A stretch of DNA of 64,000 bases from IMG/VR virus record IMGVR_UViG_3300029705_000072; one strand, written 5' to 3'. The position numbers and the translations under genes are program-made. Each line of letters starts with the position of its first letter. Position 1 is the stretch's first letter. This DNA is from a virus (lineage: Duplodnaviria > Heunggongvirae > Uroviricota > Caudoviricetes). Positions 12,054 through 56,780 of this stretch are shown here, one piece after another. The notes under the pieces were generated by a model, which ran no database searches, had not been told where the DNA came from, and saw only the letters and a list, made by a program, of their open reading frames with translations.

Positions 12054-12091
12054 AAATTTTATTTATCAAGCCGGAAGAGAGGAGGAACTGT

Positions 12092-12433: not shown

Positions 12434-12467
12434 CGCTTAAAAATGTTTTGTGGGTGGTGAGAAACAG

Positions 12468-12800: not shown

Positions 12801-12846
12801 TCGCGTTATAACCAAATAATTGTTTTATGAAGGAGGTTGCGGTGTG

Positions 12847-13176
12847 ATGTCTACTGATTTTAAAGTAGGGGATTTGGTTGTTTTACACCAGAACACACCC
12901 GTGCGGTACGGACGTTATGCACCGAGCGCTGTGCCTAGCGAAGAAATGAAATCGGTTTGTGCTACCGTTGTTGGCGCTGAATACAATTCATACCTTCTTG
13001 ACTTTGTTTTAATAGAGAAGGTTCCAGAATTTTTACGACCAACTCATACCGACAATGACGGCGATCATTATTATTGGTTTGTAAAAAAAGAATTCGTATT
13101 ACCAGCGATTGCAATGGATGTATCTGACTTTATTGAACCAGAAGAAGACGCAGATCCGTTGTGTATGTTTATGTAA
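12847..13176 (+). CDS. paralog family member 5
   Basis: RBS AAGGAGGT; FKVGDLVVLH...YYWFVKKEF...EPEEDADPL. Confidence 0.55.
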   Translation: MSTDFKVGDLVVLHQNTPVRYGRYAPSAVPSEEMKSVCATVVGAEYNSYLLDFVLIEKVPEFLRPTHTDNDGDHYYWFVKKEFVLPAIAMDVSDFIEPEEDADPLCMFM

Positions 13177-13422
13177 TAGCGCTTGATTCTGTGGAATTCA
13201 GGCGTGTCGACCCCTCTGGGCGCGCCGTGAAAGCCGGCATTATTACCAAAATGTAATTTTAAGTGGAGGATTTGACTATGGAAACTGTTTATCTAACCGA
13301 TATTACTGGAACTATTGGCGAGTGGCTTGATGCAGATTTTGATAGCGAAGTACCGAATGAAGTTATTGAGTTGCTGAAAAAGGCATATGAGATTGCAGTA
13401 AAAGAATTTGAGAGGTAATTCT

Positions 13423-13629
13423 ATGCTTGAAAAGTACAATGCAATGCTTAAAGCAGAATACGGAGAAAACATTACAGTAGAAATCAAAAGTTATATCGAA
13501 GATGATGATAATGTGTGGTATTACTACACATCTGCAAGATATGGAGATAGCGAAAATGCTTTTGAAACAATCGAAGAAGCATATAGTGATGCTTGTCTGT
13601 ATATGAGTTATGTTGGTGAGTTGTGGTAA
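13423..13629 (+). CDS. hypothetical small protein
   Basis: ORF in an AT-rich small-gene cassette. Confidence 0.4.
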   Translation: MLEKYNAMLKAEYGENITVEIKSYIEDDDNVWYYYTSARYGDSENAFETIEEAYSDACLYMSYVGELW

Positions 13630-13661
13630 GTTAAAAGGCTAATTTTGCATGGAGATTTAGT

Positions 13662-13865
13662 ATGAGAGAATTTGTTGAGTATGTATGTATTATTCTTCAT
13701 GTTGGCACAGACTTGGAAGAACTTGAAAGTCATCTGTCTATGAATGGGTATAATTTTGGCATTGATAAACGCAGAAATCTTCTCTTTGTATCCATTGATG
13801 AAGTTGAATATGTGGAAACAATTTTGAATGATAGAAATATTATCCATGGTACAAAGGTGTGCTGA
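13662..13865 (+). CDS. hypothetical small protein
   Basis: ORF, upstream gga..ATG. Confidence 0.4.
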   Translation: MREFVEYVCIILHVGTDLEELESHLSMNGYNFGIDKRRNLLFVSIDEVEYVETILNDRNIIHGTKVC

Positions 13866-13889
13866 AGGATAATTTTATGAGGTTGATAT

Positions 13890-14120
13890 ATGAAAAAGCG
13901 AATTTTAAATTGGCTGTTTGGCATAGAGAATGTAGAAGAATATATTCAGTTATTGCATGAAAATATTGAGTGCAGACAGAAGTATATTATCGAGATGAAT
14001 TCTCATCTTAAAACATTGCATGAAGAGAGAGAAAGTATTGATATTATTCGCAAGTTAATTAGGATATGCGAAAACCACGGAATTGATGCTGACGAAGAAA
14101 TAAAACATATCAAACTCTAA
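13890..14120 (+). CDS. hypothetical small protein
   Basis: ORF preceded by ttttatgaggttgatat motif. Confidence 0.4.
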   Translation: MKKRILNWLFGIENVEEYIQLLHENIECRQKYIIEMNSHLKTLHEERESIDIIRKLIRICENHGIDADEEIKHIKL

Positions 14121-14139
14121 AAGGATAGTTTTATGAGGC

Positions 14140-14394
14140 GTGAATATGAGGAAGCAATTTGTACTTAAATATCTTATAGGTGGCTATGGAGTATTTGGTA
14201 GAGTCATAGAAGATTATATGAGTGGAGAAACATACGAAGATGTTCTTAGTCAGTTTTGGAAAAGATACGAACATCTGTTAGATTGTGTTAAACCTACAAT
14301 ACTTGGATTGTACCTTCGTGAAAGCGGTGACACAAAGCAGATGTGGGAAGCAAGAAAAATCGAACTAACAGAATGTCAAATGTACGGAAGATAA
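14140..14394 (+). CDS. hypothetical small protein
   Basis: ORF preceded by ttttatgaggcgtgaat motif. Confidence 0.4.
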   Translation: MNMRKQFVLKYLIGGYGVFGRVIEDYMSGETYEDVLSQFWKRYEHLLDCVKPTILGLYLRESGDTKQMWEARKIELTECQMYGR

Positions 14395-14421
14395 AATGAC
14401 AATTTTGGGAGGATTGATATT

Positions 14422-14853
14422 ATGAACACGATGGCGATCGAAGCAAAGCTCGCCGAGAAATATAAGTATAAGAGACTTCCTGGAGATTTGTCTGAGAAAT
14501 ACAGACAGTATTTTATAGATAATATACCCGACGGTTTATTTCTAAATGGCGGAGGAGTGTTGAAGACTTTTAACGGAAGCGTGATTTGCGACAGCTACCA
14601 AAGAATTGTCGTAGGAGATTACGGAGCGTTTATTGAATTCAACGCCCCATACGATGGTTCTTCATTTATTATTAAGCCCGGACAAGAATTCAGAGTCAAT
14701 GATGAGAGGTACAGCAAGAACGTAAAATACGTCTGGCTGACCATTGATGACGGTAGCGATATTAAGATTTATCATCAGAAAAAGGGCGTAGTGTATGCGG
14801 ATTACCAGCCTGGCATGTATTACGTAAGTGTTCATGAAGTAATTCCGGCATAA
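14422..14853 (+). CDS. hypothetical protein (143 aa)
   Basis: RBS ttgggaggattgat. Confidence 0.5.
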   Translation: MNTMAIEAKLAEKYKYKRLPGDLSEKYRQYFIDNIPDGLFLNGGGVLKTFNGSVICDSYQRIVVGDYGAFIEFNAPYDGSSFIIKPGQEFRVNDERYSKNVKYVWLTIDDGSDIKIYHQKKGVVYADYQPGMYYVSVHEVIPA

Positions 14854-14878
14854 AAGAGTGATTTAAAGAGGTAAAGTT

Positions 14879-15070
14879 ATGGGTTATATGAGATTTGTAT
14901 ACGGATCAAATATGTATGACTTTTATTTTATCCCTACAATTAGATTTGAGACGCATTGCGAAAAGAGATATCTAACAGTTGAATGGTTAAAGTGGTACAC
15001 AGGAATAACATGGGCAGTAAAGGCAATAAGGGAGGAATTCAAAGAGGTTGATTATGAACGAAGGAATTAA
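14879..15070 (+). CDS. hypothetical small protein
   Basis: RBS aagaggtaaagtt. Confidence 0.4.
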   Translation: MGYMRFVYGSNMYDFYFIPTIRFETHCEKRYLTVEWLKWYTGITWAVKAIREEFKEVDYERRN

Positions 15071-15338
15071 ACAGTACACCATAGAAGATGCCTATACTGA
15101 CAATACCGAAATAAAAATGTATGAAAAAGGCAAGTTGGTTGGTAAAAAGATCGTTTCTAATTGGAAATTATATGCTTATCTTGAAAGATTGATAGATGAA
15201 GGATATCAGCAAGCATATGATGTAAAGAAATATGAAAAAGCGGTTAAAAAAGCAAAAGAATCTCTTATGCAAGCCGAAACTGAACTTGAAATGGCAAGAG
15301 CTAATAGATTGTATTCTGAAAAAGATTTAACCATATAA
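15054..15338 (+). CDS. hypothetical small protein (start MNEGIK)
   Basis: aaagaggttgattATGaacgaa start context is repeated at 16021. Confidence 0.4.
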   Translation: MNEGIKQYTIEDAYTDNTEIKMYEKGKLVGKKIVSNWKLYAYLERLIDEGYQQAYDVKKYEKAVKKAKESLMQAETELEMARANRLYSEKDLTI

Positions 15339-15362
15339 AGATACTAAATAAGAGGAGTAAAT

Positions 15363-15596
15363 ATGACCAGAACTGAAATGATAATATTTATCAAAGAGAA
15401 TCCCTATGTTCATATTACACATCCTTTTTTCGATGATTCGGAGTATATCTATTCTGCTGAAGATGGAAATGTATATGAAGAACATGGATATCTGTTTGAG
15501 AGTTGGGATAGCGTTACCGATATGTGGTCTGGTAACAACGGCATCAGAATGAGAACCGGTGGAAGTTGGGAAATTGATTGGCACATAAAAGTGTGA
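15363..15596 (+). CDS. hypothetical small protein
   Basis: RBS aagaggagtaaat. Confidence 0.4.
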   Translation: MTRTEMIIFIKENPYVHITHPFFDDSEYIYSAEDGNVYEEHGYLFESWDSVTDMWSGNNGIRMRTGGSWEIDWHIKV

Positions 15597-15632
15597 TTTT
15601 TACACGATGCTAAATAAAAGGAGTGAAATATT

Positions 15633-15869
15633 ATGAGTAAACCTTACTTTGCAAGTGTAAATGCAAATGGTTATTTGGTATATAGTGATGCAAATTCACC
15701 CAAAGATCATTTCAACGCAGTGGAATATCAGGGAATGTCAGAAGATTTGCAAGAAAAAATGCGAGAGACGTGGAGTGGTGTAGAAAATATAAATGTAACA
15801 GCACTTACGTTTTCTAATGTATTTGAGGCTTCGGATTACTGTGTGAAACACGGCTTTATTGTTTTATAA
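15633..15869 (+). CDS. hypothetical small protein
   Basis: RBS aaaggagtgaaatatt. Confidence 0.4.
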   Translation: MSKPYFASVNANGYLVYSDANSPKDHFNAVEYQGMSEDLQEKMRETWSGVENINVTALTFSNVFEASDYCVKHGFIVL

Positions 15870-16020
15870 ACTAAGTACATAAAAGTGTGGTTCTACGGAG
15901 GATATGATAATGCTTATGACGAAGTAGAAGATAGAGGAATTGATATAATTAAGTGTCTTGAAATATGTGGAGTTTATTATGTGGGATAACCACATAAAAG
16001 GGGAATTAAGGAGGTTGATT

Positions 16021-16218
16021 ATGAACGAATATCAGTTCCCGGAGGAGAAAATTTGGCTAGAAAAATGTTATGCCCATGCAAAGATATTCATTAAAGATGA
16101 ACATATTTGGGAGCTTGAATATGATGGTGACGAGCCGAATCCACATACGGAAAGTATCAAGGAATTGGAAAGGTATATTGCAGCGATTGAAGAAAGTTTA
16201 AAGAAATTAAAAGAGTAG
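16021..16218 (+). CDS. hypothetical small protein (start MNEYQF)
   Basis: RBS aaggaggttgatt-ATG. Confidence 0.4.
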   Translation: MNEYQFPEEKIWLEKCYAHAKIFIKDEHIWELEYDGDEPNPHTESIKELERYIAAIEESLKKLKE

Positions 16219-16400
16219 TTTCACATAAAGTGATAACAGAAAGGAAAGGGTATCATGCAGGGATGTTTTGAATACTTGGACAGGCTGATGGACGAAGTGA
16301 AGATCGCAGAAATTCCAGAGGAAGAGAAGGAGTATGTTGCGTCTCGTTTAGAAGAACTTGTTAGTATGCTGCGTGATAACTAGCGCAGCATTATTTAATT

Positions 16401-16481
16401 GTCCGTGTGGTGGAATGGCAGACACGCAGGGTTTAGGTTCCTGTGCGAAGCGTGTGGGTTCAAGTCCCACCACGGACACCA
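16401..16481 (+). tRNA. tRNA-Leu (UAG), type II
   Basis: perfect 7-bp acceptor gtccgtg/cacggac; anticodon loop ttTAGgt; long variable arm; T-arm gtgggttcaagtcccac. Confidence 0.85.
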
Positions 16482-16484
16482 TAT

Positions 16485-16575
16485 GGCCGGGTAAGCATAG
16501 TTTGGTACTGCAGCGGTTTGCTAAACCGTTCACCGAGTGATCGGTGCGCAGGTTCGAGTCCTGTCCCGGCCGCCA
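16485..16575 (+). tRNA. tRNA-Ser (GCU), type II
   Basis: acceptor ggccggg/cccggcc; anticodon loop ttGCTaa; variable arm caccgagtgatcggtg. Confidence 0.85.
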
Positions 16576-16654
16576 AAAATCTTCGTCGTGGTTGCATTCG
16601 GCGGACGGTTTTTTATACTCCATTAGGCGATAGGTTTATCCCTATCGCCACCCA

Positions 16655-16738
16655 GGGGTTGTGATGGAAAGGCAGACATGACGGACTTAAAATCCGTTGG
16701 AGAAATCCGTGTGGGTTCAAGTCCCACCATCCCCACCA
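16655..16738 (+). tRNA. tRNA-Leu (UAA), type II (one acceptor mismatch)
   Basis: anticodon stem acgga/tccgt with loop ctTAAaa; D-arm matches the other Leu tRNA; T-arm gtgggttcaagtcccac. Confidence 0.75.
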
Positions 16739-16741
16739 TAT

Positions 16742-16834
16742 GGAAAGATAAGCCTAATGGTAAGGCAGCGGTCTCGAAAACCGCCAGTAGCCATCTAAGA
16801 TGGCGTATGAGTTCAAGTCTCATTCTTTCCGCCA
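16742..16834 (+). tRNA. tRNA-Ser (CGA), type II
   Basis: acceptor ggaaaga/tctttcc; anticodon loop ctCGAaa; long variable arm. Confidence 0.8.
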
Positions 16835-16837
16835 TAT

Positions 16838-16914
16838 GCGGCGTTGATGTTCAATGGTTAGCATATCAGCCTTCCAAGCTGAGTGAGCCGGTTCGAGTCC
16901 GGTACGCCGCTCCA
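16838..16914 (+). tRNA. tRNA-Gly (UCC)
   Basis: acceptor gcggcgt/acgccgc; anticodon loop ctTCCaa; T-arm ccggttcgagtccgg. Confidence 0.85.
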
Positions 16915-17035
16915 GCCCCTTGCCCGGGCACACGCTACTTTTCCTTGGTGGTAGATTGGTAAAACCACCTTGTCAGGATGTGGCAGAGACCATACCTTGT
17001 CGGCGGAACGAGGAAACATCCATCCGCTATTTTTT
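16915..17035 (+). other. non-coding segment with degenerate tRNA-like pieces and a T-run
   Basis: ggatgtggcagag resembles the Leu tRNA D-arm; hairpin ggtggtagattggtaaaaccacc; ends in ctattttttc; no intact T-arm. Confidence 0.25.
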
Positions 17036-17112
17036 CTGGGTGTAGCGCAGTTCGGTAGCGCGTCTGTTTTGGGTACAGAAGGCCGCTGGTTCAAATCCAG
17101 TCACTCAGACCA
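17036..17112 (+). tRNA. tRNA-Pro (UGG)
   Basis: acceptor ctgggtg/cactcag; anticodon stem tctgt/acaga with loop ttTGGgt; T-loop ttcaaat; CCA encoded. Confidence 0.85.
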
Positions 17113-43446: not shown

Positions 43447-44032
43447 GTACACTGTACCTGATTATGGATGTGTAAGAAACATTAAGGTATATGGATTAGA
43501 CGAAAGTATTGCTAGGTCAAAGTACCCTAAGAGTGTAGACCCATTTAAAGAAAATGGGAATGTCACAAACACTGTGCTATCTCTTGCTCAATCACAAAAG
43601 GGAGAGGGGCACGACAATTATCTTTGTGGAATTGTTGCGCAGTTCGACCTAGTCTTTTCTGTAAAAGAATGGGTGGAGGCAGAAAGATATCATTTCTTCG
43701 ATATCATTTCGAGCCAGTCCACGATGCATAAGATTTCAGAGTTCGATCTGGACTTGTCGTATGACAAACACGTCGATCCAAGGGTTGTCGAGATAATGAA
43801 GGAACTTGTTGCAAGGTACAAAGAAACCGGCGACCCAGAGGACTACCTGAATGTACTAATGACAAACCCAAACGGATGCATGCTTGTTGCTGGAATAACC
43901 ACCAACTACAGACAGCTTAAGACTATGCTATCTCAGCGAGAAGCACATAGGCTTCCAAGATGGAGAGAGTTCTGCAAGGCAGTAAGAACATTCCCGATGG
44001 CTGGGGAATTTATTGTTAAAAAGAAGGGGTGA
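43438..44032 (+). CDS. hypothetical protein (probable TTG start)
   Basis: ORF preceding nrdD. Confidence 0.4.
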
Positions 44033-45191
44033 TATCTTGTTCGGTAAAGAAAGAATTAAGGTAATTAAGAAGGACGGCACTAGACAGGAGTTTAATGCCG
44101 ACAAGATTAAGAAAGCCATTACGAAGTCCGCAGAGAGAGTAATGGTAAGTCTGAATGAAAGTGATTTTGATACGGTAATCGAGTTCGTAGAAGAAAACCT
44201 TCCCGAAGACGAAGACTGCACCGTAGATGAGATGCACAACATTGTTGAGTGTGCACTAGAAGAACTGAACCCTACGGTCGCCACAAGCTACAGAAACTAC
44301 CGTAACTATAAGAAGGACTTTGTTCACATGCTGGACAAGGTGTACCAGAAGTCACAGTCGATCCGATATATTGGTGATAGAGATAATGCGAATACAGACT
44401 CGGCGCTTGTTCCTACCCAAAGAAGCCTTATCTACAACGAACTTAATAGTGCGTTGTACAAAAAGTTCTTCTTAAACAGGGAAGAACGCGAGGCAATGAA
44501 GGACGGGTATATTTACATCCACGATAGATCTGCGCGACTGGATGCTATAAATTGTTGTTTGGCAAATATTTCGAACATCTTAGACGGCGGTTTTGAGATG
44601 GGTAACGTATGGTATAACGAGCCCAAGACGCTTGATGTAGCATTTGATGTTATCTCTGATATTACAATGTCCGCCGCCGCATGTCAGTATGGCGGATTCA
44701 CAATCCCAAGAGTCGACACAATCTTGGTGCCATATGCAGAAAAGAGCTACCAGAAGTACTTAAAAGAATACTGCGATATTGTGAGCGCGCACACCGGCGA
44801 GCCTGTACTTCGAACCAGCAAAGAGGCTGACGAGTACGCAGCCAAGAAGGTGTATAGAGATTTCGAGCAAGGGTTCCAGTCATGGGAGTACCGATTTAAT
44901 ACCGTCGGTAGCAGCAGGGGTGACTACCCGTTCATCGCAATGAGCCTGGGTATTGATACGTCTCGGTTCGGTCTCATGGCTACAGAGGTTGCTCTGCGCG
45001 TAAGAATGGAAGGTCAGGGTAAGGCTGGTCATAAGAAGCCAGTGCTATTCCCTAAAATCACTTTCTTATACGATGAGAATCTTCATGGAGAAGGCGCCCC
45101 GTACGAATACCTGTTTGATGTTGCGATCGATTGCAGCAGTAAGGCAATGTACCCTAAGAAGATTGGGGCATGTTACGGCAACGTAGCATGA
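44013..45191 (+). CDS. nrdD: anaerobic ribonucleoside-triphosphate reductase NrdD, exon 1 (ATP-cone + N-terminal barrel)
   Basis: ATP-cone KVIKKDGTRQEFNADKIKKAI; class III RNR core. Confidence 0.8.
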   Translation: MLKRRGDILFGKERIKVIKKDGTRQEFNADKIKKAITKSAERVMVSLNESDFDTVIEFVEENLPEDEDCTVDEMHNIVECALEELNPTVATSYRNYRNYKKDFVHMLDKVYQKSQSIRYIGDRDNANTDSALVPTQRSLIYNELNSALYKKFFLNREEREAMKDGYIYIHDRSARLDAINCCLANISNILDGGFEMGNVWYNEPKTLDVAFDVISDITMSAAACQYGGFTIPRVDTILVPYAEKSYQKYLKEYCDIVSAHTGEPVLRTSKEADEYAAKKVYRDFEQGFQSWEYRFNTVGSSRGDYPFIAMSLGIDTSRFGLMATEVALRVRMEGQGKAGHKKPVLFPKITFLYDENLHGEGAPYEYLFDVAIDCSSKAMYPKKIGACYGNVA

Positions 45192-45480
45192 AAACCTTGT
45201 GAACCCAAATATTTGGGGTGTACAGTCGACGTTTAGTATCCGTAGGAAATGACGGATAACGATTGTGCTAACCGGGGAAGCCACGATGTGGTCAATCCGG
45301 TGGGTCGCGTTGTGCGGCCTCAATCGACTATCGAAACGATAACGCAGCACGAAGGCTGCGCGAATAACGGAGTAGAGTACTCTTTCGGTGAAATTCCGAA
45401 CGAGGAAGTGCAAGGCACCCGGCTCCAGTGAATCGGGTGATGATATAGTCAGAGCGGCACACGAGTAAGAGCGTGGTATG
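45189..45480 (+). mobile_element. ORF-less group I intron-like insert splitting nrdD (about 290 nt)
   Basis: conserved NrdD frame stops then resumes 286 nt later; GC-rich structured segment; precedent of introns in phage nrdD; boundaries approximate. Confidence 0.5.
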
Positions 45481-46536
45481 GTAACATACAGCCGCTTGGA
45501 TTTCTTATCTCTTACAGGCGAAGGGTATATCCCTTCAATGTATAAAAAGTACGGAAAGGTCGTATCTCTAATGGGCTGCCGAGCGTCCCTGTCTCCATTC
45601 TACGAACGAGGCGGAATGACACCAGCGGATGAAGATGACGTACCTGTATTTGAAGGAAGATTTAACATGGGCGCAATCTCATTACACCTTCCGATGATTC
45701 TTGCAAAAGCAAGACACGAAAACAAGGACTTCTACGATGTGCTTGACCATTACTTAGAGATGATCAGAAACCTTCATAAAAAGACCTACGATTACTTGGG
45801 CGAAAAGAAAGCATCTACAAATCCTCTTGGATTCTGCCAGGGCGGATTTTACGGCGGCCATCTAAACCCAGATGATAAGATAAGACCTCTGCTTGCTCCT
45901 ATGACAATGAGCTTTGGTATCACGGCTCTGAATGAGTTACAGGAGCTGTACAACGGCAAGTCCTTGGTAGAGGACGGAGAGTTCGCACTAGAGGTAATGA
46001 GATACATAAACGACAGAGTTAACTGGTTCAAAGAACAGGATGGTATTTTATATGCTATCTACGGAACACCGGCAGAGTCGTTGTGTGGACTTCAGGTCGA
46101 GCAGTTCAGAAAGAAGTACGGTATTGTAAATAAGGTTTCAGACAGACCATATGTGAGCAACAGCTTCCATTGCGGCGTGTGGGAAGATATCAACCCAATT
46201 GAAAAGCAGGATCTTGAAGGTCGCTTCTGGGATTTACTCAACGGTGGCAAGATTCAATACTGCAGATATCCAGTATCATACAACAAGGAAGCAATTAAGA
46301 CTCTTGTGAGAAGAGCAATGGATAAGGGCTTCTATGAGGGTATCAATCTGAGTCTTGCCTACTGCGAAGAGTGTGGGTACGAAGAACTTGACATGGATGT
46401 GTGTCCAAAGTGCGGTAGCGAATTGATCACGAAAATCGACCGCATGAACGGCTACCTTGGATATACAAGAGTTCATGGCAAGACCAGATATAATGACGCA
46501 AAGAACGCAGAAATCAAAGACAGAGTTAGTATGTAG
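45478..46536 (+). CDS. nrdD: NrdD exon 2 (glycyl-radical domain + Zn ribbon)
   Basis: MGCRASL; C-terminal CEECGY...CPKCGS and RMNGYLGYTRV (glycyl-radical region). Confidence 0.8.
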   Translation: MVTYSRLDFLSLTGEGYIPSMYKKYGKVVSLMGCRASLSPFYERGGMTPADEDDVPVFEGRFNMGAISLHLPMILAKARHENKDFYDVLDHYLEMIRNLHKKTYDYLGEKKASTNPLGFCQGGFYGGHLNPDDKIRPLLAPMTMSFGITALNELQELYNGKSLVEDGEFALEVMRYINDRVNWFKEQDGILYAIYGTPAESLCGLQVEQFRKKYGIVNKVSDRPYVSNSFHCGVWEDINPIEKQDLEGRFWDLLNGGKIQYCRYPVSYNKEAIKTLVRRAMDKGFYEGINLSLAYCEECGYEELDMDVCPKCGSELITKIDRMNGYLGYTRVHGKTRYNDAKNAEIKDRVSM

Positions 46537-48460: not shown

Positions 48461-49705
48461 ATGTCCGAAAAAAGAAGAGATAGCAAAGGACGTATTCTTT
48501 GGAACGGAGAGTTACAAAGAAAAGACGGTAAATACGAGTTTCGGTATACAGATTTAAAGGGGGAGCGCCATAGCGTATATAGTTGGAAACTGGTAGATAC
48601 GGATAAAGTACCGCAAGGAAAACGGTGTAAAGAGTCTCTCAGAGAGATTGAAAAAAGAATAAAACGTGACCTCGATGACGGATTAGATGCGAGGCTTATC
48701 GACAGAATTAAGGTAAACGACATTGTCATAGACTGGCTAGACATGGTGTGTCCTAGGCTGAAAATGAATACAAAGACGCAATACTGGAGTATGTACAAGA
48801 CATATATAAAAGACAGTATTGGACCTATGAAGGCATCTGAGATAAGGCCGTCTCATATAAGAAAGCTTTATACGAGCATACTTGTCGATCGGAAACGTAC
48901 TTTTAGAACGGTAGCTGTGTTAAACGTAATTATAACCGGTGCATTTTCTTCAGCGGTTAACGATGGCATAATCAGAAAGAACCCATCAATAGGAATCACA
49001 AAAGAACTGTCAAGACTTAACAAAAAGGGAAAGCCTGTTGTGGCGTTGAGCAAATCGCAACAGGAAAGACTTTTAAGATTTGTTCGTGGTCACCAAAAGT
49101 ACAGTAGGTGGGAGAACGTTATACTGGCTCTTCTTGGTACCGGGTGTAGAATCGGCGAGTTAGTCTCGTTGGTTGCCGGTGATTGTAATTTCGAAGAGTC
49201 TTACATCAACATACAAAGGGGTGTGTTCTACAAGAACGGTAAGAAGCAAATAGAGATTACAACAACAAAGTCTGAAAGCGGTATGCGGATAATACCTATG
49301 TTCGATGATGTTAGATCTGTCATACTAGAAGAACTTGGTGTAGAATCTCCGATGCAGATTTCAAATCTCGATGAACCAATATTTAAGAGCGTAACCGGCG
49401 ATATGCTACTGCCATCATCCGTAGAGGGAATGATGAGGCGACTGAAAGAGGCGTACAACAAATACGACGAACAGTTGGCTGCGGAAGAGAATAGGCGGCC
49501 AGATCCGATAGAAAGGCTCACGCCGCACGTATTCAGACACACATTTTGTACGAGGCTGTGTGAAAAAACATCCGATATAAAAATAGTACAAGAAATTATG
49601 GGGCATGCCGACATATCGGTTACTATGAATGTCTACAACAATATAAGTAAGGATAGGAAGATAGAAAGGTTCAAAGACTTCGGTGAATCCATCTCGGAAA
49701 TTTGA
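48461..49705 (+). CDS. int: tyrosine integrase (Int-Tn family)
   Basis: N-terminal arm-binding domain; catalytic box LTPHVFRHTFCTRL...IMGHADISVTMNVY. Confidence 0.9.
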   Translation: MSEKRRDSKGRILWNGELQRKDGKYEFRYTDLKGERHSVYSWKLVDTDKVPQGKRCKESLREIEKRIKRDLDDGLDARLIDRIKVNDIVIDWLDMVCPRLKMNTKTQYWSMYKTYIKDSIGPMKASEIRPSHIRKLYTSILVDRKRTFRTVAVLNVIITGAFSSAVNDGIIRKNPSIGITKELSRLNKKGKPVVALSKSQQERLLRFVRGHQKYSRWENVILALLGTGCRIGELVSLVAGDCNFEESYINIQRGVFYKNGKKQIEITTTKSESGMRIIPMFDDVRSVILEELGVESPMQISNLDEPIFKSVTGDMLLPSSVEGMMRRLKEAYNKYDEQLAAEENRRPDPIERLTPHVFRHTFCTRLCEKTSDIKIVQEIMGHADISVTMNVYNNISKDRKIERFKDFGESISEI

Positions 49706-50290
49706 TGTATTTTTTACACCTCAATTTACACCGTTCAAAAGAGAAGTTATAAGAACTTATGAGAAGTTATGCAGCTAATCATAACATCCATAATAACAAG
49801 CGAACATTTGAAAATGAACGATATAAGAACTTATGAGAAGTTATGAGAAGATATGTAATGGTACCTATACGCGCGAAGAGTTATAAAGAGCTATATAAAG
49901 CTATATAAGGCTATATAATCTTTTATGGCCATAAAAAGCAAGTTAATTATGCCTGGAACCATTGGAATTTCAACAACTATTGTTTTTTACCCAAAAGACT
50001 ATGCTGCGTTAAACAAAATCATTTTACACCACTTTTACACCATTTCATTTTACGCCCACTATACAACAAACCGTCCCGAAAGGGCGGTATACATAACCAA
50101 ACAAACTACTTGTAAGAACACTGGGTTTGTAACTAATGCTGTTACAAATAGTTTGTCATGCCCTCAGGAGGCTGTGAGAGCCCCTGAGACGAACGAAATT
50201 ACATCTTTTGAACAAGGTTTCAATTGAAACAAAAACACGCCCAAAAAGGCTAAAACGAAAAACGAAGGCTACCCATTTCGGGTAGCCTAT
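49706..50290. repeat. attP-like region with arm-type direct repeats
   Basis: ataagaacttatgagaagttatg x2, ttacacc x4, agctatataa x3; hairpins; no credible ORF (ORF 49925..50227 judged spurious). Confidence 0.55.
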
Positions 50291-50293
50291 TTT

Positions 50294-50908
50294 TTATTCT
50301 TCAGCTTTTTTATCCTTCAGCAGTTTAAACAGTCTGGCATAAGTGACCTTATCCCCAACTGAAGATCTTTCATCAAGTTTTACAAAACCTATATCGTCTC
50401 TCTGGTAAAAATCCAGTAGACCGTATTTTGAACTGTCGCACTCCAAGTATACTACTCCACCGCCAATAATTTTCTGTGCTCTTCGAATAACCGATATTGC
50501 CTTGTCTAGCAAGTCGTATCCGGGAAGCTCTTCTCTTGTGACGCGAGAATCCCTGCCTATTTGTGCAATGAGAAAAGATGATAGAACCATAGTGTTTCCT
50601 TCATCTTCGATAGAGGAAAATTTACTGAGGTACTTTCTCTTGGCAGTAGTTTGTATGGCCTCTGCTGAAAACGAAATTGGTTTGACCATTATTGTGAATA
50701 TACCAGAAAATGCTGCATCTGATTCACTTTCAGATACTACAAGGTATGTCATGGATATTTTTTGTTTTGCAAATGTAAGCGCATTGTTTCGAACGAAGTT
50801 TTCAATATCTTTGTTTTCAGTACAAACAAAAGTGGAGAGGAGCGCATTTGTAGCATCCTCTCCATACTTTTCCTCGATATCCAGAAGATTGAAAACTTTG
50901 ATTGACAT
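50294..50908 (-). CDS. GNAT-fold acetyltransferase toxin-like protein (TacT/AtaT/KacT-type)
   Basis: ..FLIAQIGRDSRV.. (cf. LLGRLAVD) and ..YGLLDFYQRDDIGFV.. (cf. FY.K.GF). Confidence 0.5.
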   Translation of the reverse strand: MSIKVFNLLDIEEKYGEDATNALLSTFVCTENKDIENFVRNNALTFAKQKISMTYLVVSESESDAAFSGIFTIMVKPISFSAEAIQTTAKRKYLSKFSSIEDEGNTMVLSSFLIAQIGRDSRVTREELPGYDLLDKAISVIRRAQKIIGGGVVYLECDSSKYGLLDFYQRDDIGFVKLDERSSVGDKVTYARLFKLLKDKKAEE

Positions 50909-50916
50909 TACTGTAC

Positions 50917-51090
50917 CTACTTGAGTTTGAATGTTTCCTTGATTAGTGCCGGATCAGAAATACAATTAAAATCAAACCCAATAGTTGCTGTCTTAGATTT
51001 CTTATCAGCAAGCTGCAGCGTTCTTACAAAATTGTCAGCGTTACTTTTGGTAGTAATCTTTATCGAATGGAAAATACTCGATGTAGCCAT
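50917..51090 (-). CDS. small protein upstream of and coupled to the GNAT gene (antitoxin candidate)
   Basis: 57 aa; RBS GGAGGTGATT; 8-nt gap to the GNAT start. Confidence 0.45.
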   Translation of the reverse strand: MATSSIFHSIKITTKSNADNFVRTLQLADKKSKTATIGFDFNCISDPALIKETFKLK

Positions 51091-51168
51091 TTCTAATCAC
51101 CTCCTAAAACGCAAAGAAGTACATGATTATTATATGTCAACACATTTCTCTGTGTCAAGATGTAATTG

Positions 51169-51375
51169 TTACATCAAAATTCCGTTCACGCGCAGATAAT
51201 ACTCTGCGAGCCAATGAATGTCTTTGTGCATCAAAACCGGGTTGTCCCAGTCGATCATATTTACTGCGTCCCTCGAAAGTGATTCTACATCGTATTCCGC
51301 TGCAGCGTCACCGAGAAGGGAAGCAATTTCATTTCTGAATGAGTTGAAGATAAAATTTTTAATGCTATCGCTCAC
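51169..51375 (-). CDS. hypothetical small protein
   Basis: ORF. Confidence 0.35.
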   Translation of the reverse strand: MSDSIKNFIFNSFRNEIASLLGDAAAEYDVESLSRDAVNMIDWDNPVLMHKDIHWLAEYYLRVNGILM

Positions 51376-51775
51376 AATGTTTCACCACCTTTCTGAGCAA
51401 TAAACAGAAAAAGGGAGTCCATAAAGGACTCCCAATTTCGGAAAGTGATTTACATGAATTAACTATAAATTACCATAAAATGTAATGAAAGTCAATATAT
51501 ATTTATGATAATAAATAAAAAATCCAAGCTGCCTGCCTCGATCGAGTTTGGCGTATCGCTTTTCCCAAATGGGTTTAGCATTGCTTGGTAAAGATATATT
51601 AACACCCATGAAGATGTCAGTCAAGAACTATTTCTTGCAAGTCGACATTGTTCGTGCTATAGTGACATACGGTGCTACCAAAACGGTAGGCGGTTAGGTC
51701 CCTCGGCAGAGGGTCTATCCCTCTGCGTACACTATATTACCCGCGATAGGGAATGTATGAAAGGGGGAATGCAAG

Positions 51776-51871
51776 ATGGAAATAGTAGAACATATAGATA
51801 CCATTCTAGAATGGATATCAAAAATTCTAGTGATTGCAGTTACAATCAGAAATTTCCACAAAGAAAAATAA
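51776..51871 (+). CDS. 31-aa hydrophobic peptide inside a long inverted-repeat RNA (type I toxin-like)
   Basis: RBS AAAGGGGGA 6 nt before ATG; MEIVEHIDTILEWISKILVIAVTIRNFHKEK; flanked by ggtgctacc...ggtagcacc. Confidence 0.35.
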   Translation: MEIVEHIDTILEWISKILVIAVTIRNFHKEK

Positions 51872-52085
51872 CCGCCATAGGGTCCAATCTGTAGCGGTTA
51901 CTTTCAATCGTTATTGTAAGGGCTAACCGTCTATCGGTAGCACCTTTTCTATATCAAATATAACACAAACACATTTATCTGTCAAAGAAAAATACGAGAC
52001 TTTGGCAGATTTCTATTTTCGGGCGATTTGAGACCGACTTCTGCGTGAGCTAAAATAGGTATTTCATGCACAGTTTTCGTAGGTC

Positions 52086-52622
52086 TCAGAGGGTGTCAGG
52101 GGTCGAGGATGGTATCGCCGGGACACTTGTAGGTGGTTTGAATCCTAGATAAGAATTTTCAAGCTTTTTAAAGTCACAACAGACCCTATGCAAAAAGGCG
52201 TCTTTGCCCTCAAGTCTCTTTGCATATACACGCTTTGCTTTTTCTTCAATCCTACTTGCGTTCTTTCTTATAAATCTGACCTCGTTAGATTCGTAGGTAT
52301 CTAGTTCTGGGTCTATAATTACCCTGCTATATACACCTGGCATAACCGGGAACATATTGTTGTGAAGTATATTAGCGATTTCTTTTCCAGAACTATCTCT
52401 AACAAATGTAGTTATAGACGCAGCGCGCTTCTTTTTACCATTAATACTTCTTTCGAAAGTAGTCTGTGAAGTGAGCGGTAAAACGTACGTAATACCATTC
52501 ACCATGGTAATAACGCCAACAAACGGTCTATTGTTGTATTTAACGCTAATCCTATAGTCTATCTTATGCATGTATTTCAGGTAGTCTGCGTCTATTTTAA
52601 TCAGATCTAAATTACGTTCCAT
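52086..52622 (-). CDS. toxN: ToxN/AbiQ-family endoribonuclease toxin (type III TA)
   Basis: LIKIDADYLKYMHKIDYRISVKYNNRPFVGVITMVNGITYVLPLTSQ parallels ToxN/AbiQ; upstream repeat array plus hairpin. Confidence 0.75.
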   Translation of the reverse strand: MERNLDLIKIDADYLKYMHKIDYRISVKYNNRPFVGVITMVNGITYVLPLTSQTTFERSINGKKKRAASITTFVRDSSGKEIANILHNNMFPVMPGVYSRVIIDPELDTYESNEVRFIRKNASRIEEKAKRVYAKRLEGKDAFLHRVCCDFKKLENSYLGFKPPTSVPAIPSSTPDTL

Positions 52623-52649
52623 TGCCACGACTCTTACTATAAAAGAAAT

Positions 52650-52675
52650 GGGTTGTTCACATAAGCAAACAACCC
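52650..52675 (-). terminator. hairpin between the ToxI repeats and toxN (attenuator/terminator)
   Basis: gggttgtt-cacataagca-aacaaccc. Confidence 0.5.
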
Positions 52676-52679
52676 GCAT

Positions 52680-52760
52680 TTTGATTCGTCCACTAAAGCA
52701 GGACCTCTCTAATTGTGCGTCGTCCACTAAAGCAGGACCTCTCTTAACTACATTATACCC
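52680..52760 (-). ncRNA. toxI: ToxI/AntiQ-like antitoxin RNA repeats (2 x 34-nt direct repeats)
   Basis: tcgtccactaaagcaggacctctc occurs twice with a 34-nt period directly upstream of toxN. Confidence 0.7.
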
Positions 52761-52834
52761 AGTATTCTGGGAAATGCAACAGTTATATTAGATTTCTTTT
52801 GTGTATAACAGAGTTGTTTGCAGTGTGAAGAAGG

Positions 52835-53455
52835 TCAATACCCACGAACGTCCTCGATGAAGGAGTGATTCTTCATATGGTTCTCATATGATTCGGCGAT
52901 GATACGGTAGACCACATCGATCTCACCGTTCGTCAAACCACGCTCTTCGAGGAAGGCTTCGTACTTACGGTACACCTTAAAAATACGGTTGAACTCTTCT
53001 CGGGAAACCATTACGCTGTCATCGCTGACCTTTGTAGCGAAATCAATGATGCGATCTCGGCTGTTTTGAACGAACAGCTCTTCGGTCATCTTTGTATTGT
53101 CGTTCAGAGCTCTAGTTACGTCTGCGAGGCTGCTGCTGATATCCGCAATGGATTGGTCATAAATATCAGCGCGGCAGTTTACCCAGTTCATCCAGTTATT
53201 TCTCTTGGTGATGTTGTCCTCTGAGTAGTGTGCATTTACATCTCCCAAAAGCTGCTTGACGGCCTTCAGGGTTTGTGCGGTGTCTTCTCTTTCTGCCTTT
53301 TTGCGGGAGAAGAATTTCCGCATCTTCACAAATTCAGGCACAACTTTTCCTTTGAATTCCAGGATCTCTCCAACCAGGTTCATCACAACCAGGACTAGAA
53401 CGATCACGATAGCGACCTTAGAGGGCAGGTTCAGATACTCGAGATAGCCAAGCAT
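52835..53455 (-). CDS. membrane-anchored hypothetical protein (206 aa)
   Basis: N-terminal TM; sits between the holins and ToxIN. Confidence 0.5.
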   Translation of the reverse strand: MLGYLEYLNLPSKVAIVIVLVLVVMNLVGEILEFKGKVVPEFVKMRKFFSRKKAEREDTAQTLKAVKQLLGDVNAHYSEDNITKRNNWMNWVNCRADIYDQSIADISSSLADVTRALNDNTKMTEELFVQNSRDRIIDFATKVSDDSVMVSREEFNRIFKVYRKYEAFLEERGLTNGEIDVVYRIIAESYENHMKNHSFIEDVRGY

Positions 53456-53460
53456 TGTCG

Positions 53461-53793
53461 CTATTCACCTGCCTCAGGGGTAGGTGCGTTTACTACTTTA
53501 GACATGGCGCAGAGATCGTCGATCAAAGCGGATACCACATCCAGGTTAATGTCATAGTTCACGGTCTTAGCAGAAGCCGCGACCATGGCGAGAACCCATT
53601 CTTTCTTGTCTGCACCTTTTTCGAATTTTTGTTCAGCAGTTTGCATGTATCCCATCACCAGGGTTAACAGCTGATTCCAGTTTCTTTCCTTGATGCTCTT
53701 CTGCACATATTCGATCAGCTTAATAACCAGGGGGATCACCACAGACAGGCTTGCTAATATTTCTATAATTAGCTTACCCCACTCCATAGTCAT
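53461..53793 (-). CDS. holin-like protein (LL-H-type)
   Basis: N-terminal TM plus charged C-terminus; adjacent to the holin/lysins. Confidence 0.5.
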   Translation of the reverse strand: MTMEWGKLIIEILASLSVVIPLVIKLIEYVQKSIKERNWNQLLTLVMGYMQTAEQKFEKGADKKEWVLAMVAASAKTVNYDINLDVVSALIDDLCAMSKVVNAPTPEAGE

Positions 53794-53836
53794 TACCTCC
53801 TAAATGTATAATACCCGGCCATATAGGCCGGGTTTT

Positions 53837-54139
53837 TTATTTTTCTTCTTCCATCGACACCATCTTCATCAGGTTCTTAAAAGCCTCGTAATAACCGGTG
53901 CCCATCAGCCCAGATGTCGCACCGATATAGATGGCGTTGATAATGTCGTTTGCGGGGAAGTCTTCCATAGTTTTCATGAAGACCGCACCCAGAACTGCGC
54001 CTACCGCGAGGTTGATCCAGGGAATAGCTTTGTTCTCGATCTTTGTTTTATGTTTCAGAAACATGCCTAGAATTAGGCAGATGAGGGTAATGGGCTGTAC
54101 GATGGTAACACCGAACAGCTCAAAGATATTAAAGTCCAT
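53837..54139 (-). CDS. holin (two TM segments)
   Basis: TM1 VTIVQPITLICLILGMFL, TM2 INLAVGAVLGAVF; RBS GGAGGT. Confidence 0.65.
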   Translation of the reverse strand: MDFNIFELFGVTIVQPITLICLILGMFLKHKTKIENKAIPWINLAVGAVLGAVFMKTMEDFPANDIINAIYIGATSGLMGTGYYEAFKNLMKMVSMEEEK

Positions 54140-54144
54140 CGTAA

Positions 54145-54570
54145 CTACCTCCAATCTGTTTCGTGATGTCTCTTGTAACCGTATCTGCCAGCATCAGACC
54201 CGAAGTGCATACCCCAGTCATACAGACCAATGTTTGCAATCTTGTCATGATGGTCGCAGATCTTTTTCCAAGCGTACTTGAATTGACGATACTTATCAGA
54301 AGGGATGCCGGTAATGTCTGTACCGAGACCATCAAGGTGTTCGCTGTTTGCATCGCCGCCGCAAGAAGTGTTGAAGCTCTTGGTGCGATACCACGAAGAC
54401 ACCTCAAGTGGCTTTCCGTACCAGTCACGGAGTTCCTGCAGCATCTGTGCGTGTTCGATCAGTTCGGGTGTTAATACGAGCTTTATCTCTTCGGAAGCCT
54501 GCTTGTTAGCAGCCTCATATACGCTAAAGTTCTTCGTAAGTTGCCCAGATACCATATATCCGTTTGCCAT
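54145..54570 (-). CDS. peptidase M15 (VanY / L-Ala-D-Glu peptidase-like) endolysin
   Basis: SWYRT...CGGDANSEHLDGLGTDI...D..GMHFG zinc-binding signature; RBS GGAGGTGAT. Confidence 0.7.
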   Translation of the reverse strand: MANGYMVSGQLTKNFSVYEAANKQASEEIKLVLTPELIEHAQMLQELRDWYGKPLEVSSWYRTKSFNTSCGGDANSEHLDGLGTDITGIPSDKYRQFKYAWKKICDHHDKIANIGLYDWGMHFGSDAGRYGYKRHHETDWR

Positions 54571-54582
54571 CGGAATCACCTC

Positions 54583-55611
54583 CTAAGAGAATAGGGAAGT
54601 GAAGGTGGCCTGTCCAGCCCATCCATCCACTTCGAGTCCGTTTGCTTCTTGATAGCTCTTCAGCATGCTGAGAAGGGTGTATGAGAATACACCGTCGATC
54701 TTGCCACAGTCGTAACCCTTTCGACAGAGGGCACCCTGAAGAATACGTACTCTGTTTGGAGTTGCGTATGAGCTTCCGAGAGTGAAAGACTTGTGTTCGC
54801 GCTTAGAAGCAGGACCCCAGGAGCCGTCTACATCAGAGCCGTTCTCGGTCTGCATAGCCATGATCTGACCTCTGTTGGTTGCGGGTCCGAGAGAACCGTC
54901 TACAGCGAGTCCGAGTCCGTATTCCGAATTCAGCCAGGTTTGATACTGCTTCTGGGTAGACATAGAAGAGTGATCTCCGTCTGTACCGTTGTCGGGTTCT
55001 ACCACGGCGTAAATGAAGTTCATTACAATTCGAGAAGAGTTAATTACTCTACCAGCCAAATTGCACTGAGAGCTTCCGCCTCCGTCAAGATTACCGGCAT
55101 AAGTGCATCCGAGATTCTTCATGTAAGCGACACCCTCATCGAGAGTGAGGTCGCTCTTTCCACCAACATCCTGGGCGCACACCATGAAGAAGTGTGTGTC
55201 GTTGTGGCCGATCATGGTTCTGCCGCGATCAGTATTGTCGATGCAATATGAAAAGCCTGAGTGCTGCTTTCCGACCTCGAGAAGGGGAGGGTGAACAGCA
55301 ACTGCGTCTAGAACGTGTACCGGGCAGTTATTGCCTCTGCAGTACAGTTCGGGCTTAGCGCCTCTGTTGAAGGCATAGAAAGCCTCGTTGGAGAACACGG
55401 GGTTAACCATGATACCGTTGACTTTCAGGCCAAGAGCAGAAGTTCCGTCCCAATTAAAAAAGCCACCGTTCATAAGGTGGATTTCTTTACCTGGGTATTT
55501 GTTTTTCAAGGTCGAATAGACCTTGTTCATAGAATGTCTGTTTGATGAATTATCCCACATACCGATGTGGATAATCCGGTTAAATGGAATTTTGGAAACC
55601 AGAGTTGCCAT
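54583..55611 (-). CDS. cell-wall hydrolase: NAGPA/phosphodiester-glycosidase-like domain + C-terminal peptidoglycan-binding repeats
   Basis: LDGGGSS signature; DGSLGPAT / DGSWGPAS / DGWAGQAT (PG_binding_1-like); RBS AAAAGGAGG. Confidence 0.65.
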   Translation of the reverse strand: MATLVSKIPFNRIIHIGMWDNSSNRHSMNKVYSTLKNKYPGKEIHLMNGGFFNWDGTSALGLKVNGIMVNPVFSNEAFYAFNRGAKPELYCRGNNCPVHVLDAVAVHPPLLEVGKQHSGFSYCIDNTDRGRTMIGHNDTHFFMVCAQDVGGKSDLTLDEGVAYMKNLGCTYAGNLDGGGSSQCNLAGRVINSSRIVMNFIYAVVEPDNGTDGDHSSMSTQKQYQTWLNSEYGLGLAVDGSLGPATNRGQIMAMQTENGSDVDGSWGPASKREHKSFTLGSSYATPNRVRILQGALCRKGYDCGKIDGVFSYTLLSMLKSYQEANGLEVDGWAGQATFTSLFS

Positions 55612-55637
55612 ACCGTTTCCTCCTTTTATTCTAAAAA

Positions 55638-56780
55638 CTAAGCATTGCCAAATGTTTCTCCGGAACACGATCCGTAGCAAGTTGTTGAGCAAGAATAATG
55701 GCACGATGTTTTGCACTCTCCTTCACACCCCGCACTACAGCTAGTACATGCAGTATCACAGGAATTAGAACATTTGCCAGAGCAAGAAGTACCGCCGCAG
55801 CCAGAACAACCGGCACATCCGCCGCAATTATTGGTACATCCGCCAATGCAACCATTTCCACATCCTCCGGAACATCCTTGTGTACAACTTTCACATCCAG
55901 ATCCACACGAAGTGTCGCAACCACTATCGCAACCGTCATCACATGAGTTTCCGCACCCTGATCCACAATTCGTATAACACCCTCCAACGCAGTCGCCTAT
56001 ACACCATCCATTACAGGCACCGCAGCCGGTGCCACAGTCTCCCGCACAGTCGTTATTACACGATCCACTACAAGACGACGTACACTGAAGGCTACAAGTA
56101 GCAGTGCATTCACCGGCGCATCCTTTGCCACATCCTTGACACTGTCCAGAACACGAGCCAACGCATCCATCTATGCACGCACCCGTACATCCATTTGTGC
56201 ATCCCCCAGAGCAATTCCCATAGCAACCAGTACATCCATCCTCGCAATCACCAGAACATCCTGACACGCATCCGCCGGTGCAACTAGTACAGCCAGTAGT
56301 GCAACCACTACCACACGTGCCCTTACATCCGTCACAATACGACCCATATGACGTTACAGACGTATCGCCTTCGCATCCAGAACAGCCGCTCGCGCAAGTT
56401 CCTTGACATAGACCAGTACAAGCGCTGCGGCAAGAAGAGGAGCCCGTATCCGTCTCTGTTGCTAATTCGTTTACATATGTAATGAGAGAGGAATCGAAAG
56501 AACTTGGAAGTGGTTCTCCGACTGAAACCAGTTTTAAGTCGCCGTAATCCTTAATTTTCAATAACAAATCAACAGTCTTTTGTCCAAAATCAATCGTTAC
56601 ACCGTTATCGGACGACGGATCTGTTTTAAAGTTATACTCATCGCCAGAATAGTCGATTGCTTCACCACTTACAGCATATCCGTATCCACCGTCAGTACTA
56701 AGGCTTCCATAGTATTTTCTTCTTTCAAACTCGTCGTGGATTTTCTGCTTTAATTCCTTAATTTGCGATATAGTAAGCAT
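55638..56780 (-). CDS. Cys-repeat protein B: conserved 140-aa N-domain + about 240 aa of (C-x-x-x)n tetrapeptide repeats (about 70 Cys)
   Basis: CTGLCQGTCASGCSGC...; C-terminus STTCYGSCSGETFGNA; coupled to fibre 2 (14-nt gap, RBS GGAGGTGAT). Confidence 0.75.
   Translation of the reverse strand: MLTISQIKELKQKIHDEFERRKYYGSLSTDGGYGYAVSGEAIDYSGDEYNFKTDPSSDNGVTIDFGQKTVDLLLKIKDYGDLKLVSVGEPLPSSFDSSLITYVNELATETDTGSSSCRSACTGLCQGTCASGCSGCEGDTSVTSYGSYCDGCKGTCGSGCTTGCTSCTGGCVSGCSGDCEDGCTGCYGNCSGGCTNGCTGACIDGCVGSCSGQCQGCGKGCAGECTATCSLQCTSSCSGSCNNDCAGDCGTGCGACNGWCIGDCVGGCYTNCGSGCGNSCDDGCDSGCDTSCGSGCESCTQGCSGGCGNGCIGGCTNNCGGCAGCSGCGGTSCSGKCSNSCDTACTSCSAGCEGECKTSCHYSCSTTCYGSCSGETFGNA

Follow-up and report, generated by a model that had tools for sequence, protein, structure and literature searches.

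Introduction

The described systems closest to the locus reported here are the type III toxin–antitoxin systems of the ToxIN family, in particular ToxIN_Bt of the Bacillus thuringiensis plasmid pAW63 and AbiQ/antiQ of the Lactococcus lactis plasmid pSRQ900. Among 67 toxIN loci the antitoxin arrays hold between 1.9 and 5.6 repeats of 31–62 nucleotides (nt) (Blower et al. 2012, PMC3401426, Table 2), and an antiQ with 1.8 repeats still neutralises AbiQ (PMC5086642). The active-site residues of ToxN are K33, T52, S53 and K55 (Manikandan et al. 2022, PMC8860590), and the cut sites of characterised ToxN enzymes lie in the tail of the repeat, at AA/AU, GAA/AU and A/AAAA (PMC8860590, PMC5086642). A survey from 2025 states that no type III systems had been reported from phages before its own tenpIN hits, with the exception of one Clostridium plasmid-prophage (PMC12283969). 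Here we describe a locus on the minus strand (52086–52760) of IMG/VR record IMGVR_UViG_3300029705_000072, a 64,000-nt stretch of DNA from a tailed phage that is referred to throughout as the window. The locus comprises a predicted toxin gene, toxN, preceded by two copies of a short RNA repeat, toxI. It fits the criteria for a type III locus given by Blower et al. (PMC3401426), and is very probably a complete ToxIN-family (ToxIN_Bt/AbiQ-like) module that a large temperate phage carries among its accessory genes.

Results

The toxN gene (52086–52622, minus strand) runs from an ATG at 52622 to a stop at 52086 and encodes 178 amino acids (aa). A preliminary description of this DNA had likened the N-terminus of the toxin to ToxN/AbiQ; the peptide that it quoted lies in this open reading frame (ORF), and profile searches bear the likeness out. 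The protein matched PF13958 (ToxN_toxin) with E=1.2e-32 (113.7 bits against a cut-off of 25, profile positions 1–156 of 159) and PADLOC AbiQ with 6.8e-33. The sole significant matches in the PDB were ToxN_Bt (4ATO), AbiQ (4GLK), ToxN_Ec (7D8O) and ToxN_Pa (2XD0). Searches with the single sequence gave E-values of 1.4e-12 for AbiQ, 3e-8 for ToxN_Ec and 3e-4 for ToxN_Pa, while a profile built from 26 members of the clade gave 1e-23 for 4ATO, 6e-23 for 4GLK, 3e-14 for 7D8O and 8e-12 for 2XD0, with ToxN_Bt and AbiQ as the best relatives of solved structure. All 214 database homologues belong to PF13958, the nearest non-identical one being 69% identical; those that carry a name are annotated as 'type III toxin-antitoxin system ToxN/AbiQ family toxin' and come from Lachnospiraceae and Eubacterium metagenome-assembled genomes (MAGs). 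The NCBIfam models for CptIN and TenpIN scored 26.9 and 13.3 bits respectively, neither reaching its cut-off of 90. On these matches the toxin is assigned to the ToxN/AbiQ endoribonuclease family, and the locus is placed outside both CptIN and TenpIN.

Residues R32, T51 and S52 of the window toxin align with K33, T52 and S53 of ToxN. An R in place of K33 is also present in E. coli clusters 4 and 5 (PMC8860590). All 43 invariant columns of the family alignment (A1) are kept, and the protein ends in a 16-aa C-terminal tail that is absent from most homologues.

Upstream of toxN, the 24-nt core AGAGAGGTCCTGCTTTAGTGGACG occurs exactly twice in the window (52744–52721 and 52710–52687, minus strand), at a period of 34 nt and with up to three mismatches allowed in the search. 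With the same three mismatches permitted, a core-repeat match arose in none of 100 dinucleotide shuffles. Each core begins a unit of 34 nt, recovered by repeat search and by covariance model R1. Unit 1 (52711–52744, minus strand) consists of the pseudoknot core AGAGAGGUCCUGCUUUAGUGGAC and a diverged 3′ tail or linker, G-ACGCACAAUU. Unit 2 (52677–52710, minus strand) has the identical core and a near-consensus A-rich tail, G-AAUCAAAAUG. The two units score 29.1 and 50.8 bits respectively against R1, and in the repeat search the two copies are 91% identical over 33 nt. Tandem Repeats Finder did not detect the array even at its lowest score setting because two copies are too few for the program.

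On the minus strand a −10 hexamer, the two units, a terminator hairpin and the ATG of toxN follow one another, which is the promoter, repeats, terminator and toxin order of the family. The preliminary description had recognised this ToxI/AntiQ architecture, and had correctly placed two perfect cores and a hairpin directly 5′ of the toxin. The −10 hexamer (TATAAT, 52752–52757, minus strand) matches the consensus perfectly and lies 7 nt 5′ of unit 1, so that transcription is predicted to start at or just before the first unit. A putative −35 hexamer, TTGCAT (52774–52779, minus strand), can be read 16 nt further upstream. In relatives, TATAAT or TATATT is found at the same short distance 5′ of the first unit, often accompanied by a TTGACA −35. 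The predicted Rho-independent terminator (52640–52675, minus strand) lies between toxI and toxN; it is a G+C-rich hairpin, GGGTTGTTTGCTTATGTGAACAACCC, which begins 2 nt past the tail of unit 2 and whose 11-base-pair stem (52675–52650) is followed by ATTTCTTTT (given as ATTTCTTTTA in the feature annotation). A terminator-like match in this region is not significant taken alone (0.9 expected). A G+C-rich hairpin with a T-run stands at the equivalent position in every relative, its sequence differing from locus to locus. A weak Shine-Dalgarno-like AAGAG (52631–52635, minus strand) lies 8 nt 5′ of the ATG.

The spacer between the −35 and −10 hexamers holds a perfect palindrome, CCCAG-aata-CTGGG (CCCAGaataCTGGG, 52758–52771, minus strand), which none of the relatives was seen to share. 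Either an operator or chance could account for it.

A third, partial repeat, which the preliminary description had raised as a point to check, was looked for and rejected. When the full 64-kb window was scanned with a covariance model of the unit and with filters disabled, these two copies were the only ones returned. Moreover, TATAAT stands 7 nt before unit 1 and the terminator 2 nt after unit 2, and since both abut the array there is no room for a further partial repeat. Collapse of a longer array during assembly was likewise rejected. From the promoter through the repeats to the toxin, five metagenome contigs from independent samples show 100% identity, arguing that the arrangement is fixed; two of the five are k=141 assemblies, long enough to span a three-unit array, and the closest relatives also have two-unit arrays.

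A longer frame is open on the same strand, with a GTG start at 52727 inside the repeats and a length of 213 aa in the ORF listing. This is the version in the public gene call (P0001, the database representative), and with similar extensions in P0017 and P0080 it could be taken to mean that the repeats are coding and form the N-terminal extension of a 213-aa protein. However, such an extension would run across the terminator hairpin. Most homologues begin at the equivalent of the ATG at 52622 and are 160–170 aa long, and in alignment A1 the extensions of P0017 and P0080 appear as spurious as that of P0001. Furthermore, the repeats are conserved at the nucleotide level in relatives regardless of frame or copy number, and periods of 33 nt would shift the frame. 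A coding role for the repeats is therefore extremely improbable, and the 213-aa call, as judged from these comparisons, is an annotation artefact.

Each unit can be parsed as the 5′ strand of helix S1 (4 nt), 2 nt, the 5′ strand of helix S2 (4 nt), the 3′ strand of S1 (4 nt), a loop of 4–7 nt that usually ends in AGU, the 3′ strand of S2 (4 nt) and an A-rich tail. This parse fits all 16 unit types, those of Bacillus and Clostridioides ToxI among them, and S2 is fully paired in 16/16. Across 30 distinct units, pairing in S2 (GUCC/GGAC) holds in 119 of 120 cells, and three of its four pairs show changes on both sides. S1 (AGAG with UGCU) shows such changes at two of four, its third pair being an A-G mismatch in the clade of the window and C-G or U-A elsewhere. 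The covariation score was 0.262, and fell to 0.120 or less when the 3′ partners were slid by 1–3 columns. These data point to a modular H-type pseudoknot in each unit, with single-stranded A-rich tails and comparative support for both helices. In the minimum-free-energy fold of the full toxI transcript the repeats pair with each other and the terminator hairpin is kept; this fold is uninformative on the pseudoknot of the individual unit.

The covariance model of the unit links the RNA of the window to Bacillus ToxI. The B. mycoides plasmid pBWB402 (L058) encodes a toxin that matches the crystallised ToxN_Bt at E=4e-109, preceded by 2.9 repeats of 34 nt. This ToxI lay outside the training set of the unit model and nevertheless matches it at 36.9 bits (E=3e-6), and its unit is about 69% identical to unit 2 of the window, with compensatory changes in S2. 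Therefore, the antitoxin of the window is identified, from sequence comparison, as a ToxI_Bt-type RNA, homologous to the 34-nt ToxI of ToxIN_Bt. In the Rfam scan for ToxI/AntiQ that the preliminary description had proposed, no family was recovered, and in a scan of the whole window nothing at the toxI region reached a gathering threshold; the RNA is related to Bacillus ToxI nonetheless. A full-text literature search for the core sequence returned no relevant paper, the supplementary tables of Blower et al. (2012) being outside that search.

The distribution of the RNA was then compared over 47 genome loci encoding relatives of the toxin and three further metagenome loci. The core GAGAGGTCCTGCT(T)TAGTGGAC followed by the tail GATTCAAAAT was present at nearly every locus with sufficient upstream sequence. 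At about 45 loci a homologous toxin (45–69% identity) is preceded by the shared core, which is identical or differs by 1–2 nt across these toxins and many hosts. The arrays always lie between the −10 box and the terminator hairpin. Their copy number is variable: one copy is found at, for example, L009, L011, L025 and about ten Treponema or spirochaete loci, two copies at 13 genome loci (the window included), three at 11 and four at L031. The three closest relatives examined (L053, L055 and L056, toxins 66–69% identical) have exactly two full units each. The preliminary description had regarded the array as minimal, with fewer repeats than a typical 2.8–5.5. This does not hold: given the published range of 1.9–5.6, the one to four copies of the relatives and the activity of antiQ with 1.8 repeats, a two-unit array is ordinary, and a two-repeat antitoxin is normal for the family and not unusually small.

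At least eight of the single-unit loci have an intact toxin of 162–180 aa: the Treponema/Spirochaetes MAG loci L034, L036, L037, L039 and L042, together with L009, L011 and L025, each combine such a ToxN-family gene with one unit, a TTGACA/TATATT promoter directly 5′ of it and a terminator 3′. Published searches for type III systems demand tandem repeats, and loci of this kind would therefore be missed. It is possible that some reflect assembly collapse. In a clade with 33-nt units (L025–L032), arrays finish in a diverged 'terminal variant' unit, e.g. AGTGTTTCCCTACTTAGTGGGA (L027, about 2892–2926), in which both helices are kept through compensatory changes and the A-rich tail is absent; such a variant could serve as a structural cap, or as a last unit that cannot be cleaved. 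Loci with near-identical flanks can also differ by one unit, as in L008 and L009 (two and one) and in L018, L019 and L020 (three versus two). L020 has an assembly gap of Ns within the array, and these differences could be either copy-number polymorphism or assembly artefact.

Several observations weigh against a complete and active ToxIN module. The −35 hexamer agrees with the consensus at only 3/6 positions and for this reason escaped the promoter scan. The ribosome-binding site falls short of that in relatives (AAGAG versus GGAG). K55 of ToxN_Pa and ToxN_Ec is T54 in the whole clade of the window toxin. The active ToxN_Bt has N at the equivalent position, suggesting that this position is variable, and an invariant R58 lies close to T54 in alignment A1. 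On the RNA side, a scan of the repeat region against Rfam (E up to 10) gave three chance-level matches to unrelated families (E≥0.19). The compensatory changes come mostly from a few divergent unit types (the terminal variants, L049 and Bacillus), and the gap placement for one S1 pair was set by hand. Finally, the tail of unit 2 (G-AAUCAAAAU) is one change away from the family consensus G-AUUCAAAAU, whereas that of unit 1 (G-ACGCACAAU) has three changes in 10 positions. No other non-terminal unit has so divergent a tail, and it accounts for the low score of unit 1 (about 22 bits lost). As ToxN enzymes cut in the tail, the junction of units 1 and 2 may be processed less well and be poorly cut. 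However, the A-to-C change inside the A-run recurs in L021, and single changes at the other positions are found elsewhere in the family, so that the diverged tail is probably tolerated.

Some of these features could also be read as signs of decay, the locus then being an inactive remnant with an attenuated toxin and a degenerating unit 1. The 22 bits that the unit 1 tail costs against the family model, AAGAG in place of GGAG, T at the K55 equivalent and the odd C-terminal tail are all consistent with this, and truncated toxins do exist among the relatives (L040, L045, L050 and L051). However, the toxin ORF is full length and retains every one of the 43 invariant columns, and the T is clade-wide and not a private mutation. 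Moreover, both pseudoknot cores are perfect, and the types of substitution in the unit 1 tail, bar a G at one position, also occur in units of other loci. We therefore regard a remnant as very unlikely, and a complete module remains the reading that we strongly favour.

The window itself is a large phage genome, with a DNA polymerase, a DnaB-like helicase, a split NrdD, a reverse transcriptase and 11 tRNA genes. On the 5′ side of the module, the minus strand carries tail-region ORFs, a NAGPA/peptidoglycan-binding protein, an M15 endolysin, two holins and a 206-aa protein, and toxI lies directly downstream of these late lysis genes. On the 3′ side there are three small genes on the same strand, one of them acetyltransferase-like, and a tyrosine integrase (48461–49705, plus strand) that points toward them. 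Integrase and lysis cassette thus converge on an accessory-gene region that holds the module (48461–55716). This is the unintegrated (attP) order of a temperate phage and not an integrated prophage junction. The term 'prophage-encoded' in the preliminary description is therefore right in so far as the genome bears an integrase, but no integrated junction is present. On gene content and order, the module appears to be an accessory gene of a large temperate gut phage.

The related genome loci were searched by tblastn with 13 proteins encoded around the module in the window and share none of these neighbours, suggesting that the cassette moves on its own. Related cassettes occur in another phage beside RelB/YoeB, in an integrative element and in a restriction-modification/Fic island, settings that fit a mobile defence or addiction cassette. 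Relatives in sequenced phages are scarce: a megablast of the locus against GenBank phages gave no match, a protein-pattern scan of IMG/VR viral contigs gave no confirmed relative, and even a distant homologue of the toxin was present in only one of 50,697 GenBank phage records.

This position in the phage genome also bears on a different function, in which the module is mainly anti-defence. Here toxI, whose core is identical to that of chromosomal loci in likely host lineages, would top up the antitoxin and block abortive infection by a host ToxN, much as the pseudo-ToxI of Pectobacterium phage PhiTE, and toxN would be secondary. No terminator was predicted in a terminator scan between the late lysis genes and toxI, so late read-through could raise ToxI during lytic growth. 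In addition, a 24-nt core that is the same or 1–2 nt different across toxins 45–69% identical makes cross-neutralisation plausible. However, a decoy would not need toxN, and here toxN is intact with every family-invariant residue kept, in a locus that is identical in five samples. Published ToxI–ToxN pairs are moreover highly selective (ToxI-type and CptI antitoxins, PMC5086642), and the host ToxIN that would be countered is hypothetical. A mainly anti-defence module is accordingly judged improbable.

A joint reading would combine both activities. In gut Clostridia and spirochaetes, many host-encoded ToxIN loci have a pseudoknot core that hardly varies, and phage ToxI could therefore neutralise host ToxN during infection, while the phage's own ToxN would exclude rival phages from lysogens. 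If true, the diverged tail of unit 1 and the single-unit relatives with intact toxins would mean that a natural type III antitoxin needs no tandem repetition. We hold this combination to be unlikely.

Further features were noted in the window. Pfam searches of the flanking small ORFs and of the 206-aa and 204-aa proteins were uninformative. The 204-aa protein is acetyltransferase-like (phrog_1758, E=6e-29, no Pfam match) and is preceded by a 57-aa gene (50294–51090 for the two, minus strand), possibly a second toxin–antitoxin-like or defence pair. About 700 nt 3′ of toxN (51376–52085) lack a convincing ORF and include several hairpins and, on the minus strand, a strong promoter-like site (TTGACA-17-TATATT with TG, 51985–51957). 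An Rfam search of this stretch gave a chance-level match only; it may hold attP or a small RNA. A RAGATH-16 RNA is found at 191–262 (plus strand; 71 bits against an Rfam gathering score of 65.6). The 11 tRNA genes (3138–17112, plus strand) form two clusters (Ile-tat x2, Thr, Ser x3, Gln, Leu x2, Gly and Pro), some of them overlapping listed ORFs, a large complement for a temperate phage. The reverse transcriptase (10384–11580, plus strand; Pfam RVT_1, E=1e-19; phrog_2825) may belong to a diversity-generating retroelement or a retron-like element. NrdD is split into 44013–45191 and 45478–46536 (plus strand), which match the N- and C-terminal halves of phrog_487 and stand about 290 nt apart; a frameshift, an intron or another kind of intervening element could explain the split.

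Discussion

The family of the toxin, the architecture of the locus, the homology of its RNA to Bacillus ToxI and the comparative support for both helices are shown by the sequence and the comparisons above. For processing, stoichiometry, cleavage site, toxicity and an anti-phage or addiction role, we infer a likely course from ToxIN_Pa, ToxIN_Bt, ToxIN_Ec and AbiQ. A constitutive sigma-70-type promoter would start transcription at the first of the two 34-nt toxI units. Most transcripts would end at the terminator and a minority would read through to toxN, leaving the RNA antitoxin in excess over the toxin. Each unit would fold into a compact H-type pseudoknot (S1, AGAG/UGCU; S2, GUCC/GGAC) flanked by A-rich single-stranded tails. 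ToxN, as a sequence-specific endoribonuclease, would cleave the precursor in the A-rich linker (consensus GAUUCAAAAU) and remain bound to the processed units in a closed, inactive RNA–protein ring. Should the supply of toxI stop, through shut-off of transcription by a superinfecting phage or loss of the element, the labile RNA would decay, and freed ToxN would cut A-rich cellular and viral RNAs, resulting in aborted infection or in the death of element-free cells. By this analogy, the likely pay-off for a temperate phage is that superinfecting phages would be kept out of its lysogens, or that the element would be stabilised.

Phage-borne toxIN has rarely been documented, and this locus is a clear further example, a type III system of the ToxIN family in a tailed phage that encodes an integrase. 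The locus defines, in addition, a family of ToxI RNAs that is widespread in gut anaerobes and absent from Rfam, with one to four copies per locus and kinship to the crystallised ToxI_Bt. Such a definition could improve annotation, given that the public call misreads toxI RNA as part of a 213-aa protein. The understanding of type III systems is unchanged by it; the system is otherwise textbook and its repeat number unremarkable.

Among the described systems, CptIN and TenpIN resemble the window in design, with repeats followed by a terminator and the toxin gene, and their toxin fold is distantly related, but they have repeats of 40–57 nt, and the window toxin stays below their NCBIfam cut-offs. 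ToxIN_Pa (pECA1039; 2XDB/2XDD) and ToxIN_Ec (7D8O) belong to the same family and have the same locus design, and R32, T51 and S52 of the window toxin take the positions of their active-site K33, T52 and S53; their antitoxins are processed at the A-rich sites AA/AU and GAA/AU (PMC8860590). However, their repeats are 36 nt long and number 5.5 in Pa and 3–5.6 in the E. coli clusters, their toxins are a more distant match, and their K55 is not conserved in the window toxin. Clostridium phage D-1873 (Blower et al. 2012, PMC3401426) and Clostridioides phage pCD1602_4 (L059) provide a precedent for the setting, as a ToxN-family toxin follows ToxI-type repeats in a phage or phage-plasmid genome. Both are plasmid-like prophages, whereas the window is an integrase-encoding tailed phage with its module between lysis genes and integrase, and in pCD1602_4 the toxin is only 29% identical and is preceded by three units of about 36–37 nt.

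AbiQ/antiQ (4GLK) shares the fold and family of the toxin. It has a short array (35 nt x 2.8), a Gram-positive host and a role in abortive infection, and the antiQ that is functional with 1.8 repeats (PMC5086642) is comparable with the 2.0 of the window. It differs in the length and sequence of its repeat, in S at the equivalent of T51 (PLLS, against PLTS in the window) and in being plasmid-borne. ToxIN_Bt (4ATO) differs in that the window toxin is only about 30% identical to it, in its 2.9 repeats against 2.0, and in its location on a Bacillus plasmid where that of the window is borne by a phage of a gut anaerobe. The tail is GAUUCAAAAU in the window and GCGAAAAAAU in Bt, where the cut falls at A/AAAA, and the exact position of cleavage may therefore not be the same. 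However, ToxIN_Bt provides the best match to a toxin of solved structure, and shares with the window the 34-nt repeat, the same modular pseudoknot with a loop ending in AGU, the A-rich tail and a terminator before the toxin.

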